The translations under genes and the position numbers were made by a program. From Curvularia clavata (lineage: Eukaryota), in the NCBI GenBank assembly GCA_023920165.1, contig CP089274.1:1302001-1366000 (forward strand): a stretch of DNA of 64,000 bases. Direction: 5' to 3'. Below the pieces are notes generated by a model that ran no database searches, had not been told where the DNA came from, and was given only the letters and a program-made list of their open reading frames with translations. Below, piece after piece: positions 8,687 to 26,036 of this stretch; position 1 is the stretch's first letter, and each line of letters starts with the position of its first letter.

Positions 8687-10018
8687 TTATGCCTTGGCCT
8701 TTGGTGTGGCCTTCTTGGGCGTTGTCTTCTTCTTGGGTGTGGTGGCCTTCTTAGGCGCGGCAGCCTTCTTTGCTGCAGGCGCCTTCTTCTCCTTCTCTTC
8801 AGTTGCCTTCTTCTTGGGTGCAGCGGTCTTCTTTGCTGCTTTTGCCTTGGGCTCAGCAGCCTTGGTCTTGGTGACACGACCAGACTTGGTCTTGCCGAGA
8901 ACGCGCGACACTTCCTCCTCAACAGCTGGCTTGTCAGCCGCTGTCTTACGAGGCTTGCTGGCGTTGGCCTTGGGCTTGGCGGCCGCCTTGGTGGTAGTGG
9001 CAGCCGCCTTCTTCTTTGGTGCAGCAGCCTTCTTCTTAGGGGCAGCCTTGGTCGTAGTCTCAGTCTCCTGAAAATCGGGTCAGCGAAGTCACCTGAGAAC
9101 ATGAGTATGACACGTACAGTAGCGCTCTCCTCCTTGGTCTCCTCCTTGGCAGCCTTCTTGGGGGCAGCCTTCTTCTTCTCAGTGGTCTTCTTCTCGGTCG
9201 TCTTCTTTTCAGTAGTCTTCTTCTCAGCCTTAGCCTCAGACTTCTTGGAGGCAGCAGCAGGCTTGGCCTCCTTCTTAGCCAGTTTTACTGGTCCAGATGG
9301 GCCTGCGTGGCGTGTCAGTTAACGTTCCAACTCTCAAGTGACAAGCAGGGATCGCATCGATGGCACAAACGCGTCACGGGACGTGTTGTGTGGCAACGTT
9401 AGGCAGCGTGAAGGTAGGCACTCACCCTTGGGACGCGCAAAGTCGCCCTTCTCCTCACCAGAGGCGATGGCGCGGTTGACGTGACCCCTGAAAGTGGTAT
9501 CGCTCACGTTGCCGATTTTGTTGTTGGCTTGGATGTACTTTTGAATGGCTTGACGGCTGTGAGGAAAAGCGTCAGTACAAACTCTTAGACAGGCGCGCCG
9601 AGGCATGACGCGAAGCGAAAGCAACAACAGCACTAAAATGGGTTGACTAACCTGGATCCATTACGCTCCTTAAGCTGTAGTACAGGAAGAACATGTCAGT
9701 AATCAAATCCATTGAACTTTACGGGGTGGGGGTGCGTTGTTGTGTTTTGCGCGACGATGCGCTGGCGTCGCAATCCCCGGTGCGGGGGAACTGGCAATGC
9801 GCCTGGCAGGATAGACTCACATTGATAATGGCATCCTTTACCATGTCTACAGGATAGAGTCAGCATTGATCGGCGACCAGGATGCAACCGGACACGAACG
9901 CGTACAGCAAGTGTTGGTGGTGTGCGGTGGTGTGGAACTTACCAAGGTAGGGAGCATGTGCAGGCGCGGCGGCGGGGGCCTTTGCCTTGGAGGGGGTGGA
10001 AGTTTTCTTGGGAGGCAT
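8687..10018 (-). CDS. hhoA: Linker histone H1 (6 exons)
   Basis: Spliced MPPKK...HAPYL/DMVKDAIIN/LKERNGSS/RQAIQKYIQANN...ARPKG/PSGPVKL globular domain, then a Lys/Ala/Thr-rich tail ending KKATPKAKA; GT-AG introns; TATAAA on the minus strand near 10164-10169. Confidence 0.93.
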
Positions 10019-19848: not shown

Positions 19849-21709
19849 CTAATCGTGAGGATATTCGTCACGCACATTACTTACGAAACACTGGTTCGAT
19901 TCATCCCATCGCTTGAAGTGGCGTCCAGCGAGCTTCAGCAAGGCTTCTGAAGGACGTACATCTTTGCCAACAGGCTGGATGTTCTCAGCTGCGACATAGC
20001 GAACCGACTTATCGCAGACACTACATGGCCGTTAGCAGAGTTTACTAGGATGCACCCACCAATATAAGGGAGTCGGGCATGTCTTACAGGACGTGGTAAA
20101 ATGCCTGGTTCCTACCATTTGGCAGAGAGTCAACACGCATGTTCTGAATCCAGTCTTCGTTTGCGTCACACACTACATCCCATCCCGTAATGACACCCTC
20201 GTAGCCATAACGCTTATGTTGGAACAGCTGTCCAACTTTGAAAGCGACATTCCGTGTCCGCTCGGAGCGAGTAATGACGGGTTTCCGTATCGCATCGACT
20301 TGGTGCATGTTCTGCACAAATTGTAATAATCGGTGGCCCTCAGGTTGATTGTAGAACATCGGAATGACGTAGCGTGATAGCAAGGTGACGTCCCATGGGT
20401 AATGCATTTGGAAATGTTCGAGCAAATAAGGCAGGTACTGACGACGGCGAATGGTTGTGTGACCTAGATTGGCGGTATCATCGCCTGGTCCGAGGAGCAG
20501 CATGGCCCATATAGTTGCGTAAAAAGCGTTGTCCATGTCTGGACTGGAATTTATCCATGATGCCTGAACAGTACGCATCCCGGCCTCGGTTTCGCGAATC
20601 ATTTGCACAGAGTTCATGATGTTACGTGCCGTACGTAGAACCATTTCTCTTGTGTTGGTATCAGTCAGGAAACTGCGATGTTCGCTGCTCGGAACGCCCA
20701 TATCTCGTAGTGTGCGCTGCAAGTCGCCCCGTCGTACTTCGGATGTGGATCGGAAAGGATCCAGATACATGTAATCGAGTTCATTGGAGCTGGTGGGTTT
20801 GTATTTTCCATTAAGATCATAATTCTTGGGTGCGTATACAAGAGTGTAGACATGGAAGAGGAATCCACAGGGGCGCGCATCCAGACCAACGCGCCGAGCA
20901 ACCGCACAGTATATCGCTACGGAAATGAGAGGGAGTGACTCGTGGGCGGCTGAGCGCAGTACCAGACCAATGAAGGAGTTTCGCAAGGCGCGGTAAGAAG
21001 TGTCAGGAACGCCGTTGAAGCCTTGTTCTCGAAGGTAATGTGCTAACGTCGAAGCCTTGTCTCGAGGGGACCAGTCGGGGAAGGCAGGGTACTTTTCTAG
21101 CAAACCATTGGCAAGTTGGCTGATATCATCGGCGACGATATCCACGTCCACCTCTTCACCAACCCTAGCAAAGACATCGTATGCGCCCAGCGCTCTCTCA
21201 ATGGGCACATCATTGCCATCGTGTAGACTTGTCCACACCTTGATGGCCACCTCACGATGTATGCGCTCCAGAACTGCGTTTGCATAATATCTTCTTGCCA
21301 GCACATCCTCGGCATCATCTGGGCATGCGCATTCTCTGAGCAGCGTCTCTTTTGCGTCGTATCCATAATCGGCAATGTCATTGATACACCGTATGCGCCC
21401 TTGCTGAGTGGCAACAATGCGATTCAGCAGCTCTCGTGTGCGACGGTCAATCGTGTGTCTAGTCTTGTATAATTTGCGCCAGTCTACGTCTGATAAGGGT
21501 GCGGCAAACTTTGCGGCGATGTTGTGGCGAGAATCCCATGTTTTGAACTGCGTCTTGCAGAGGTGGCGCCAGATGATGGGCGCATCGGTCGTCAGCCGCT
21601 TTATGAGCCTATTCGTTTGTGAAACAGACACGAGCGATTGTGGATCCAGATTCAGGAAGATGGCCTCAAGAATCTCTGTCGGTAGGTCTGTGAAGCAGGT
21701 GCGCGCCAT
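19849..21709 (-). CDS. F-box protein with transglutaminase-like and YccV/HspQ-like domains (FBXO21-like; 2 exons)
   Basis: N-terminal F-box FTDLPTEILEAIF; LPLISVAIYCAVARRVG and YLDPF; C-terminal FKVGQLFQHKRYGYEGVITGWD...QAFYHVL/...SVRYVAAENI; last exon ends VRDEYPHD*. Confidence 0.9.
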
Positions 21710-21895
21710 AATGGGCGACGGAGGGGGGTTCACAAAATTGTCAAGTCGAATCAACTTTGCGCTTCTGGGGACTTATGAAGACGTGGAGAGAGAAGCCAGC
21801 CGGAGCGCGATTGTACTGACGGGCTTGACGTGACGACTATGCACAGGTTGTGATTTACTTTTGGCGCCGGGATTGCGTCAATGTTAAGGCACGGC

Positions 21896-21952
21896 CACCA
21901 GGTGGGGCAGTAATTCGTTGTGCATCTTGTGATGAGTAATCCACCCCAACAC
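21896..21952 (+). repeat. Left terminal inverted repeat (57 bp)
   Basis: CACCAGGTGGGGCAGTAATTCGTTGTGCATCTTGTGATGAGTAATCCACCCCAACAC is the exact reverse complement of 23463-23519. Confidence 0.97.
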
Positions 21953-22075
21953 ACCCAACCCCCCATACAAAATAATGAACTGCGCATCTATCTTATATGC
22001 TTTTTAAGTAATGTAGTTATGAAACTATGTAACAAACTCTGTATATACTGATTTTTTAGAGTTTTACTTGGTGTT

Positions 22076-23377
22076 TTACCACTTTCTGCCGCGAATTCTC
22101 TCACCACTATTACGGGTCAATTCCTCGCACCGCTCCTTCATCTCCATGATTCTCTCTCTTATTTCTTGGATAGTAATAGTGTCCCAGCACTCTTGGAGAA
22201 GTAATTTGAGATGTTTCTTTGTCCCATCCCATCTTTTTTGGGGTGGTAAAGGCCACCAAAGTCTCTTCTTCATGCGCTGGTTAAGAATCAACCACACACC
22301 TTCTTGTGGGTTTAGATCAGGACTCTGTGGTGGGTGTATAATAACGTCAATCCAGTTAGCTGTTTTGTAGTCTCTTGCAATGTTGTTCTGACTTTTTGTG
22401 CCATGGGATGGGTCGTTGTCCTCCTGTAATCTCCAGGTGGTGATACCTAAAGTATCTACAGCCCGAGATTCCTGCACTAACTTGCAGTAATACGGTAGTA
22501 TAGTTTCAGTGTAATACTCTTGAGTCATATGGTGGCCGGTACTGACAACCTGCAAAGGAGGGGGCTTCTTTGCCTCCCATTCTTTGATCTCTTCGGCGTA
22601 CTGTTTCTCAGTCTGGTACTTTGATTTTCTTGGCTTTCTTGGAGGCTTAGGAGGTGTAAGCATCTCAGAGTCGTCGTTGTAGAAGTTTAAAGCACTTTTA
22701 TAGTACCAGTTAACTGCTGCGTACATATGTACTGTCCTAGAATCCTTCCCCATTTCACTACGGGTGCGCAAGTTACTCCCTTTTGTCCGAGGATCACCAC
22801 GACGCCGGAGTATCCGAGGCTTTTGAAATGAAGTACGAGGGTTAAAATGCTCTTCGTCGGTAAACCAGACACCATCCCAGTAGCCATATAATGGCTTATT
22901 CTTGTGCTCTTCACCATACTGAATACGGTATACTTTGTTGGCTGGAAGAATGTCTTTTGAGTAAGACGCCACATATAAATGGGCATCAAGTCTACTTGAT
23001 AGATTATACCTTAATGCACGCTCACTAAGAGGGATTTGGTTGGCGCGGGCTTGAAGGAAGTAAGGTGCATCGCGGTAAGGATTCTGACTGTCATCGAGGA
23101 GAGATTCAATAGTTTCCAAAGGCACTTTGAATGGCCGTCCAAGTTTATTTCCTTGTTTTTCTGCTTTCCTCTTCCTTACGCGCCTCTCGTCTCCAAACTC
23201 CTTGCGATCTTTGAGCCATTTACTTGCTGTGTTGCGGTGGATACCATGTTGTTCTGCAATGCCCCTGAGTGTGTCCCCTTTGCCCCGCCGATCGTAATGG
23301 TCAAAAAAGTGCGCACGCTCTTCAGTATCTGGTACTTTTAGCACGCAAAAGTTTTCTGGAGTAGAAGGCCTGTCCAT
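22076..23377 (-). CDS. DDE transposase, 433 aa (Tc1/IS630-like)
   Basis: HTH-like TLRGIAEQHGIHRNTASKW, GRP motif, catalytic FTDE, QEDNDPSH and PPQSPDLNPQEGVW. Confidence 0.93.
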   Translation of the reverse strand: MDRPSTPENFCVLKVPDTEERAHFFDHYDRRGKGDTLRGIAEQHGIHRNTASKWLKDRKEFGDERRVRKRKAEKQGNKLGRPFKVPLETIESLLDDSQNPYRDAPYFLQARANQIPLSERALRYNLSSRLDAHLYVASYSKDILPANKVYRIQYGEEHKNKPLYGYWDGVWFTDEEHFNPRTSFQKPRILRRRGDPRTKGSNLRTRSEMGKDSRTVHMYAAVNWYYKSALNFYNDDSEMLTPPKPPRKPRKSKYQTEKQYAEEIKEWEAKKPPPLQVVSTGHHMTQEYYTETILPYYCKLVQESRAVDTLGITTWRLQEDNDPSHGTKSQNNIARDYKTANWIDVIIHPPQSPDLNPQEGVWLILNQRMKKRLWWPLPPQKRWDGTKKHLKLLLQECWDTITIQEIRERIMEMKERCEELTRNSGERIRGRKW

Positions 23378-23462
23378 TGCACTTTGAATTGATTCATTTG
23401 GACTAGTATTGGCTGCGTTGTGTGGCTGTGAAGATGGTGGTGGGTAGGTGCGACACTGCGGA

Positions 23463-23519
23463 GTGTTGGGGTGGATTACTCATCACAAGATGCACAACGA
23501 ATTACTGCCCCACCTGGTG
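23463..23519 (-). repeat. Right terminal inverted repeat (57 bp)
   Basis: Exact reverse complement of 21896-21952. Confidence 0.97.
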
Positions 23520-24184
23520 CGGCTGGAGAGGATGATGATCGCATTGCCTCGTTCGCTTATCGCTAATCAGCCAGCCTCGGCAGCTAAGCCGCGATACTGC
23601 ACCTCAGCCTTCTGCGTGCGCTTCTGCGGCATCTTGGGCCAAGACACAGGTCCTCTGTGGTACACGAAGACGGCGACGCAGCAAATGTTGTATCTATACC
23701 GTGCCGAACATGTGAGCCTTGACCACTATAGGCCGACTAGTTCCGATGCGAAGCATGGGTCTGATCTTGCTTGCTGGCCAGCTATAGTCAGCTGCCAGAG
23801 CCAGTCGTTGCCGGCTGGAACAGCTTCCGGCTCTCCGAAGGAAAGTTCCACACGGAGGAAACAACTCTGGACCTTGCGCGAACAATGCAGCGACCGCACG
23901 TTGCAAATCCAGCCGTCAGACAAGCACAACGACTCGCCAAAATGGCACAAAGTCGTCCACGTTTGGTCCGAAGAGTCCGCGCGATCGCTTCCGATATTCG
24001 CGTTCCGAGAGGGCCGACCGGTGTGTAGCCACAATTGATGTCACCGTCTGCCACCGCACCGCCGCACCGCCTAGACAACATGACGCCCTACACCTAGAAT
24101 CGAGCATCCTGTCTTACCGCCCGCCCTCTTCCTCCGGATAGCTTCGTATCGTTTCGATTTTGTCCTGACATTTCCTACCTTACC

Positions 24185-26036
24185 ATGGCGGAGTTAACCA
24201 GAATTGAGTCAATGCAATACCCTGCCGGACATTTGTCCCATCTTTCCGAAACCCAGCAGACGCAGCTTGTCGAGTTCAAGCGCATCTGCCACGAGGCCGG
24301 CTACTACACGCCCGAAGCCGGAGAAAAGCAAGCAAGCCATGATGATGAGACGATGCTGTGCGTGAAAAACTCTGGATCGCCCACAACATTAGTGGGGCGC
24401 TGACTTGGAACAGGCGCTTCTTGCGCGCGCGTCGATTTGTGCCCCAGGAAGCTTTCAAGCAGTTCAAAGACACGGAAGACTGGCGCAAGGAGAACAAATT
24501 GAGTGAGATTTTCAACACCATTGAAATCGAGGAATACGAGCAGACGCGTCGTTTGGTAGAGCCTCAGACCCTGCATGCGGTCAACCCAATCTAACAGCCT
24601 CATCTAGTACCCGCAATGGCTCGGCCGACGTGACAAGCGCGGCATTCCTCTCTTCCTCTTCGAGGTCGCGCCGCTCAACTCCAAGAACATCTCCGCATAC
24701 GAAAAGCAGCTTGCCAAATCAAAGACTATCATTCCCAATGTCGCAACCAAGAACCTCCGTCTCTTCGCTCTGTATGAGTCGCTCACAAGGTTCTACTCGC
24801 CATTGTGCTCCATGGTTCCCCGCGCATACCCCGAGACGCCGGTTTCGCAGAGCAACAACATTGTAGATATTAGCAATGTTGGATTGAAACAATTCTGGAA
24901 TCTGAAAGGACACATGCAAGACGCTTCAGTCTTAGCCACAGCGCATTACCCAGAGACGCTGGACAGAATATTTGTATGCCCACGAAAATCCACGCTACAG
25001 GCTCACAGCAAGACTGACATATCTCTAGATTGTTGGCGCGCCTAGCTTCTTCCCGACCGTCTGGGGCTGGGTCAAGCGTTGGTTTGATCCTATTACAGTA
25101 TCCAAAATCTTCATCCTCTCTCCACACAACGTCTACTCAACACTCTCCCAATATATCGACCACGACAACATCCCTAAGAAATACGGCGGCGGCCTCGACT
25201 TCGAGTGGGGCCAATTGCCCAACCTCGAACCGACAATTGAGGCGCAAATGAAGTGGGAGAAACCTAACATTCAAAACGGGCGCAAGACATTCCCGATTGG
25301 ACCACTGAAATGGGAACAAGGAAAAGATGGGGCTATGGAAGCTTGGGGGGTTGGAAATGAGAATGGCGTACCAAGACATGAACTCATCTTCACCATCCCT
25401 AACCCTGTTGGTTACAAGCAAGGAGATGTTATTCCACCAACACCTGCGGCGGAAGAAATCGGAGACCCCCTCACAACGACAGGCACCGCTACGCATCCTC
25501 CCGACAGTGAGGTTCCAGATACGGAGACACCACCTTCGGACCTAGACAGCCCGACCCCGGCCAGTGAGCCTGCCACGACAACCTTGCCTATTCGTTCTGG
25601 CACCTCTGAAGCCAAATTTGAGCAACAAAACCACACACACGCCTCAGGCCAGCTTGCAGAAGGTACTCCGGATGCCGCAGTCATCGATCACGGCAACGGG
25701 GACAAGAGCATAAGCGTCGAGCCCCAGACCATTGCTCAGGCACCAAAAGAGGTACCGCTCCCTGACCCACAAGAGCCTCCAGCCCCTAGCTATCTAGACC
25801 AAGCTAAATCTGTTGCTGCATCAGCCTCAGCCGTAGTCACGTCTACAGCTACAACCGCTGCCGGGGCCGTTGCTAGTATTGTCACGGGCAAAGAGCACGA
25901 GAAGCCCGAGGAACCGGTACGGGAAAAAAGCGCCGACGAGAAAGAGGTAGATCGTCAAATCGATGCCACCAGTGCAAAGGAAGTCGAGTCTTTTCTGAGA
26001 GACCAGACTGCGAGTCGTGCCCAGGTGCCTAGTTGA
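24185..26036 (+). CDS. Sec14/CRAL-TRIO lipid-binding protein with disordered C-terminal tail (4 exons)
   Basis: YPAGHLSHL, DDETML/RFLRARRF, RDKRGIP, HYPETLDRIF, WFDPITVSKI and IPKKYGG across three GT-AG introns. Confidence 0.9.

Follow-up and report, generated by a model that had tools for sequence, protein, structure and literature searches.

Insertion at TA is treated as the hallmark of the IS630-Tc1-mariner (ITm) superfamily of DNA transposons, and annotation tools use TA for element boundaries, classification, and miniature derivatives. How, then, should we understand an element that encodes a Tc1-type transposase and is bordered by something else? This question is raised by a transposon in a 64,000-nucleotide stretch of Curvularia clavata contig CP089274.1 (the whole of which we refer to as the window). 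A reading of the sequence alone had described the transposon as a Tc1/IS630-type element with CAC ends and a 4-bp CGGC duplication in place of TA, and as a possible member of an ITm-related fungal lineage whose target choice and cleavage stagger had changed. Our answer, which we hold with considerable confidence, is that it is an autonomous cut-and-paste ITm transposon of a Pleosporaceae host, closest to Tc1 and belonging to a fungal clade marked by CAC...GTG termini, DD38E spacing, and a basic insert of about 50 residues. As part of the same reading, this clade would have lost the TA target and would insert with a 3- to 4-bp stagger, the repeats that flank its members having no fixed sequence and never being TA.

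An empty allele with a single CGGC

The left junction of the element reads ...AAGGCA CGGC|CACCAGGTGG (in longer form, CACCAGGTGGGG), with the first element base at 21896. The right junction reads CCACCTGGTG|CGGC TGGAGAGG, with the tip in longer form being CCCCACCTGGTG and the last element base at 23519. CGGC abuts both ends, giving a whole span of 21892–23523, and TA is absent from both junctions. A repeat finder identified inverted arms of 60 nt that match at 59 positions (98% complementary), with 57 consecutive matched bases from the tip inward; together they form the sole long inverted repeat of the window. The match ends exactly at the boundaries named in the sequence-only reading, whose account of the junctions is in this respect borne out. 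With up to three mismatches allowed, the 22-nt tip occurs at only two sites in the window, and 100 shuffles yielded no match. The element is also distinct in composition (G+C of about 44% vs 52–57% in the flanks), and it has the layout expected of ITm transposons, a single transposase gene between terminal inverted repeats with a total length of about 1.3–2.4 kb.

If CGGC was duplicated on insertion, an unoccupied allele should carry it once. The stretch 21000–24400 is present in 23 public sequencing runs, and we compared the contigs of four of these (X2, X3, X4, and X6) with the window. X2 has the same organism code as X1, the window's likely source run, and X3, X4, and X6 have three other codes. 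X3, X4, and X6 each contain one contig in which 21891 is joined straight to 23520, skipping 1,628 bases, with four letters that fit either side. Because 1,628 equals 1,624 plus 4, the unoccupied allele, ...GGCA CGGC TGGAG..., holds a single CGGC; TA is absent from it as well. The empty-site contig of X6 is 12,439 bp long and differs from the window by a single mismatch over its 1,773 aligned flank bases. In X2 the site is filled, with contigs spanning both junctions, and word depth is about 100 in the element and about 50 in its flanks, which suggests at least one further copy.

A single-CGGC allele within near-identical flanks shows that the insertion is recent and polymorphic, and it establishes the 4-bp duplication for the window copy: the CGGC pair is a true duplication made on insertion and no chance match. 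The element has also been recently mobile, as its intact open reading frame, the 59/60 match of its inverted ends, the near-identical X6 flanks, and the doubled depth in X2 attest.

Further copies elsewhere in X2, X3, and X4 are visible at one end each, as loose contig ends at 21889–21896 and 23520. The left flank of one copy in X4 ends GCGT, and the right flank of one in X3 begins CCGG. A contig in X2 that carries 255 unrelated letters already joins the window 7 nt outside the inverted repeat, as would be expected if a second copy had the same GCACGGC flank. The flanks visible in these runs are all GC rich and contain CG, as CGGC does, which may reflect a target preference.

Flanking repeats among relatives of the element

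We sought relatives of the transposase in a metagenome scan, which gave 79 loci. A script sought inverted repeats around each transposase match, and termini were anchored by eye on the conserved tip. After setting aside duplicate contigs (L006, equal to L005, and L036, equal to L034), loci cut at one end, and L001, whose ends are not definable, the flank set comprised the window element and 41 distinct relatives on metagenome contigs (42 loci), at 30–40% protein identity. Complete extra copies were looked for in L001, L002, L010, L043, and L060, and none was found. All but two of the 41 relatives are 1,393–1,638 bp long, the shorter copies being L061 (961 bp) and L053 (1,252 bp). CAC stands at 78 of the 84 termini and CAA at the remaining 6, and the family tip can be written CAC(C)AG(G/T)GGG.

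The longest exact direct repeat touching both ends is 3 bp at 12 of the 42 loci and 4 bp at 10; 20 loci have none, and a repeat of 2 bp only was seen at none. TA does not occur on both sides of any family locus (0/42). A null built from 1,640 mismatched pairs of left and right flanks gave a repeat of 3 bp in 1.8% and of 4 bp in 0.55%, so that the 22 loci with a flank repeat compare with about 1 of 42 expected by chance. The 12 three-base duplications (AAG twice, ACC, CAA, AAC, CAT twice, CGC, GCT, CTG twice, and GCC) have no consensus. At the level of the family, therefore, the repeats and the lack of TA support what the sequence-only reading had proposed, a lineage of fungal ITm elements in which target choice and stagger have changed. 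Taken as a family trait, the 4-bp duplication of the sequence-only reading stands for 10 loci; the 3-bp duplications at 12 others were unforeseen.

The boundaries are independently defined by two pairs of near-identical elements. Between L052 and L066 there are 2 differences in 1,408 bases; their flanks are unrelated and carry the 3-bp repeats CTG and CAT. L012 and L014 are 99.86% identical over exactly 1,412 bases, from CAC to GTG, with intact reading frames. The four bases that border L012 on one side are the reverse complement of the four on the other (GCTG and CAGC).

As a positive control, we put a Tc1-like element with DD34E spacing (counted on its open reading frame) through the same examination as the family loci. 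This element encodes a 343-amino-acid transposase and lies on L080 (876–2493) and L081, two short contigs of a Dysgonomonas metagenome-assembled genome (MAG) that are most likely eukaryotic contigs binned with a bacterial genome. Its ends read TA|CACTATCAG...CTGATAGTG|TA, and both copies (2/2) conform to TA|CAC(A/T)...GTG|TA, so the procedure detects TA where it is present. The control also bears on the CAC tip, which it shows to be ordinary for Tc1-like elements. The CAC ends reported by the sequence-only reading are present at both tips of the window element and at most family termini; as a pointer to Chapaev and Transib they make a weak argument, since the canonical control carries them too, and a CA(C) end fits ordinary Tc1 ancestry.

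We also asked how the two duplication lengths are distributed, using a quick maximum-likelihood tree of 47 rows, 15 of which were read through breaks with X. The well-supported clade of L009, L011, L013, and L017 has 4 bp in all four members, and 3 bp is scattered over most other clades. Inspection of the family alignment by eye showed no insertion or deletion in the transposase that tracks duplication length. The stagger may be fixed for each enzyme, or one enzyme may make both lengths. Also by eye, and including the L052/L066 alignment, the 3-bp cases did not fit as one-base-shifted termini or as a 4-bp duplication overlapping the element end.

At the ten 4-bp sites, the preceding base is a purine in all ten and the following base a pyrimidine in eight; the twelve 3-bp sites have no such pattern. 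In this small sample, the 4-bp sites hint at a symmetric R-NNNN-Y target.

The transposase and its place among known groups

The window protein passes the Pfam cut-offs for DDE_3 (residues 314–372; 31.9 bits vs 28.6) and for the helix-turn-helix (HTH) model HTH_23 (residues 18–62; 29.4 bits vs 24.6), and its matches at E ≤ 1 are limited to these two and HTH_28. DDE_3 was detected in 51 of 52 aligned relatives, among which HTH models are rare (HTH_23 in 6, HTH_28 in 6, and HTH_Tnp_Tc3_2 in 3). The NCBIfam IS630 model matches all five proteins tested, with E values of 2e-9 to 1.7e-16; the scores lie under its bacterial-equivalog cut-off, as expected of a eukaryotic relative. When a 15-member family profile was searched against all solved structures, the one transposase match was the catalytic domain of Sleeping Beauty (5cr4; E 3.4e-26), and mariner structures were unmatched. 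The family motifs ftdE, lqEdnDpSHG, and SPDLnPiE pair with SDE, QHDNDPKH, and SPDLNPIE of Sleeping Beauty. The DDE_3, IS630, and Sleeping Beauty matches uphold the assignment of a Tc1/IS630-type transposase made by the sequence-only reading.

Two features set the family protein apart from Sleeping Beauty. The putative catalytic residues D320 and E359 are separated by 38 residues (DD38E), with a 4-residue insert just after the second motif (DNDPSH), vs 34 in Sleeping Beauty. In addition, the family profile is longer by about 49 positions from the first Asp to the second, the added stretch being rich in Lys, Arg, and Pro, such that profile positions 200–289 face only residues 71–111 of the Sleeping Beauty chain. 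Within this insert, K248, P249, R250, W267, E268, and A269 are conserved in the family alignment.

By sequence, then, the element is placed within the ITm superfamily, nearest the Tc1 side: it has the DDE_3/IS630/Tc1-type catalytic domain and the N-terminal HTH of that superfamily. It departs from the superfamily in its target, as CGGC rather than TA is duplicated, the empty site lacks TA, and TA borders none of the 42 family loci. Like Tc1 and Sleeping Beauty, it carries one intron-less transposase gene between inverted repeats in an element of 1.4–1.6 kb, joins an N-terminal HTH to a DDE_3 domain with (S/T)DE, DNDPxH, and SPDLNPIE, and has termini beginning CA. Unlike them, it has a 4-bp duplication (3 or 4 bp in its relatives) of no fixed sequence and never TA, and the window family's spacing of 38 and the extra positions between the first two Asp residues depart from the strict DD34E arrangement of Tc1.

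Several known groups share one or another of these features. Compared by description, Intruder has the same nominal DD38E spacing as the window transposase; it is a sibling of DD34E/Tc1 that is mainly restricted to animals (PMC7731502). The TA duplication that characterizes Intruder is absent from the window element. Zator, a relative of ISAzo13, duplicates 3 bp (PMC10045372), and under PSI-BLAST Zator and Mariner converge in Repbase practice (PMC4455052). The 3-bp duplications at 12 of the 42 family loci recall Zator, whereas the window copy duplicates 4 bp. PF07592, which would indicate a Zator/ISAzo13-type transposase, has no match at E ≤ 1 in the window protein and none among 52 relatives, and ISAzo13 models match none of five proteins. 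The available text of one survey places fungal Zator in Rhizophagus and in single occurrences in Basidiomycota, not in Dothideomycetes, and states that Sola has no Pfam match (PMC5751038). The window copy shares a 4-bp duplication with Sola, whose transposase is of a DDD type; the window protein is fully accounted for by its Tc1-type domain. Termini beginning CAC are likewise shared with Chapaev/CACTA and Transib, a likeness that does not discriminate, and no EnSpm-type or RAG1-like transposase is among the Pfam matches of the window protein at E ≤ 1.

There is precedent within ITm for leaving the 2-bp rule, in that Tc4 and Tc5 of Caenorhabditis elegans and TBE1 of ciliates make 3-bp duplications. 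Their targets keep fixed outer bases (TNA, ANT), unlike the 12 three-base duplications of the window family. A model for a shift of stagger within one transposase family is offered by IS3, whose subgroups differ in duplication length, 3, 4, or 5 bp (PMC10045372), although IS3 is prokaryotic and belongs to a different DDE family with a different mechanism.

The nearest homologues of the transposase are just 55–57% identical to the window protein and are annotated "Tc1-like transposase DDE domain" in NCBI and UniRef. Those with names are all Dothideomycetes (Bimuria, Clathrospora, Setomelanomma, Aulographum, and Eremomyces); one homologue cluster, from Bimuria novae-zelandiae, comprises 9 sequences. 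Many other homologues lie on contigs, several of which are only roughly the length of the element. A full-library protein search returned 1,147 matches at E ≤ 0.001 but 80 at E ≤ 1e-30, a drop that sets the group well apart from the bulk of Tc1/mariner proteins. The prokaryote genomes searched yielded no family member, the two weak matches (30% identity over 108 residues) both belonging to a canonical DD34E Tc1-like element in a MAG. The viral contigs searched yielded no relatives.

Mechanism, competing explanations, and significance

For a Tc1-like element that has left TA behind, insertion might proceed as follows. The transposase would use its N-terminal HTH domain to bind the 60-nt inverted ends, and, by the established chemistry of DDE transposases, the triad D174/D320/E359 would excise the element. 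The two 3'-OH ends would then be joined to target phosphates 4 bp apart here, and 3 bp apart in many relatives, instead of 2 bp apart across TA, with gap repair yielding the duplication. More speculatively, the altered stagger and the lost reading of TA could stem from a changed geometry of the paired active sites around target DNA, for which the two family inserts, the basic one separating the first two Asp residues and the 4-residue one that follows DNDPSH, may be candidate causes.

Several observations count against this account. No flanking repeat is present at 20 of the 42 loci, among them the intact near-identical pair L012/L014; the missing repeats may be due to metagenome contigs in which assembly joined the flanks of different copies and so erased the duplications, or to decay. 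Of the ten 4-bp cases, three (L033, L051, and L058) are the palindrome GCGC and may be extensions of the inverted repeat, not duplications; at L051 the palindrome is 8 bp long, ATTAGCGC/GCGCTAAT, followed by GTT on either side. The tree accounts only weakly for duplication length (the 19 scored tips require 4 changes, and 18 of 300 label shuffles require as few), which may vary from event to event and not be fixed per lineage. Within the window's own lineage, one insertion only has both flanks known. The putative catalytic triad was assigned from alignment only, and the proposed cause of the altered stagger is speculative.

L033, L051, and L058 are distant family members, yet all have GCGC just outside CAC on both sides. 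Either these lineages have a palindromic target preference or their termini lie outside CAC.

The duplication itself admits of other explanations, none of which we consider at all probable. Were the element a canonical TA-duplicating Tc1/mariner transposon with its true ends elsewhere, CGGC would be a chance repeat, for which the prior is 1 in 256. The exactly 1,628 extra bases relative to the empty site already refute this explanation, and TA, which was seen in the control element, occurs at neither junction and at no family locus; we give it practically no credence. An alternative that accepts the alleles as observed is that the empty ones are secondary, the element having been lost by recombination or repair between pre-existing copies of CGGC that acted as microhomology. 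Presence and absence alone are silent on which state came first, but the skipped stretch corresponds to the base to the inverted-repeat ends plus 4 bp, repeats of 3 or 4 bp are also present at 21 further independent loci of the family, against about 1 expected, and Tc1-type excision normally leaves footprints and not a clean site. Secondary loss is thus very unlikely.

The likeness to Tc1 might instead be superficial and the element a member of another superfamily, since Zator, Sola, Chapaev/CACTA, and Transib typically have CAC termini and duplications of 3 to 5 bp, and the 3-bp duplications of Zator in particular fall within the range seen here. The protein speaks against this: only DDE_3, HTH_23, and HTH_28 match in Pfam at E ≤ 1, IS630 models match 5/5 and ISAzo13 models 0/5, and the Sleeping Beauty alignment runs through DNDPxH and SPDLNPIE. 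Across the family, moreover, the terminus co-varies with the transposase. We regard membership of another superfamily as extremely improbable. A more serious alternative concerns novelty alone: the element and its duplications would be real, and the family already present in Repbase or Dfam, for example as "Mariner/Tc1" or as an unclassified fungal entry, of which this would be a routine member. Fungal genomes, Pleosporales included, have been mined for repeats for years, and the Tc1-like annotation of the homologues points the same way. On the other side, our literature search (Repbase and Dfam being outside it) met with no account of Tc1-like elements, fungal or other, that as a group make 3- or 4-bp duplications, and there is none in the available portions of PMC4522978, PMC11544213, PMC7731502, PMC5751038, PMC4455052, and PMC10045372. 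A search of the literature for the terminal sequence returned unrelated primer matches only. The fungal survey, in the part available, puts DDE_3 elements in Tc1/Mariner and reports no exception in duplication (PMC5751038), and the usual rule is given elsewhere, with ITm elements generating TA "in general" (PMC10045372) and Tc1/mariner elements seeking TA (PMC7731502). Prior cataloguing is somewhat doubtful on this evidence, and it is far from negligible.

We advance only tentatively, as something that could well be so but falls a little short of an even call, that an entire undescribed clade of Tc1-type transposons, found in Dothideomycetes and common in the metagenome contigs searched, has abandoned TA for a 3- or 4-bp stagger with no fixed site sequence. 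If true, this would provide Tc1-type enzymes, natural and probably active, that are not bound to TA, as well as a tractable case of the evolution of target stagger within one DDE fold, with 3-bp and 4-bp forms among close relatives. With closely related transposases whose stagger is 2, 3, or 4 bp, the determinant of the distance between the two strand-transfer sites of this fold could be tested directly. A CAC-ended clade with 3- to 4-bp duplications would, in current annotation, be given the wrong boundaries or be classed as CACTA-like or unknown. Vectors of the Sleeping Beauty type can insert only at TA, and a natural relative without this restriction could be a start toward less biased insertional tools. 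The finding is of interest to transposon biologists.

Genomic context and feature coordinates

The features of the transposon are collected in Table 1.

Table 1. Features of the transposon, in window positions, with the basis of each assignment
Feature	Position	Strand	Basis
Left copy of the CGGC target-site duplication	21892..21895	none	Junction read; single CGGC at the empty site in X3, X4, and X6
Entire transposon, 1,624 bp, 5'-CAC...GTG-3' termini	21896..23519	-	Junctions; inverted repeat; skipped 1,628 = 1,624 + 4
60-nt terminal inverted repeat, 3' side of transposase gene	21896..21955	+	Repeat finder
Transposase coding sequence, intron-less, ATG at 23377, 433 codons, stop 22078-22076	22076..23377	-	Uninterrupted frame; domain matches
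Putative catalytic Glu codon, E359, motif SPDLNPQE	22301..22303	-	Invariant in alignment; 38 residues from D320
Putative second catalytic Asp codon, D320, motif QEDNDPSHG	22418..22420	-	Family alignment and Sleeping Beauty alignment
Conserved basic insert between catalytic Asp 1 and 2, residues ~242-273, PPKPPRKPRKSKY...WEA	22559..22654	-	Alignment
Putative first catalytic Asp codon, D174, motif FTDE	22856..22858	-	Conserved in at least 90% of sequences; aligned with Sleeping Beauty SDE
N-terminal HTH DNA-binding domain, residues 18-62, Pfam HTH_23	23192..23326	-	E 6.4e-7; passes curated cut-off
60-nt terminal inverted repeat, 5' side of transposase gene	23460..23519	-	Repeat finder
Right copy of the CGGC target-site duplication	23520..23523	none	Junction read; empty site

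The insertion lies in a divergent intergenic region between two genes, at 20084–21709 (minus strand) and about 24600–26036 (plus strand). The first is an F-box/YccV gene with its ATG at 21709, about 190 bp from the element; the polymorphic insertion upstream of it may alter its expression. Its product shares 91% identity with a protein of Bipolaris zeicola and 84–86% with proteins of Alternaria and Pyrenophora, identities that identify the host as a Pleosporaceae fungus. The plus-strand gene appears, by eye, to be of the CRAL-TRIO/Sec14 type. Elsewhere in the window, 8692–9210 holds a degenerate 18-nt periodic repeat resembling CCTTCTTCTTGGGNGNNG, with a 58-nt unit present six times at 60–71% identity; its minus strand probably encodes a repeat rich in Lys and Ala.

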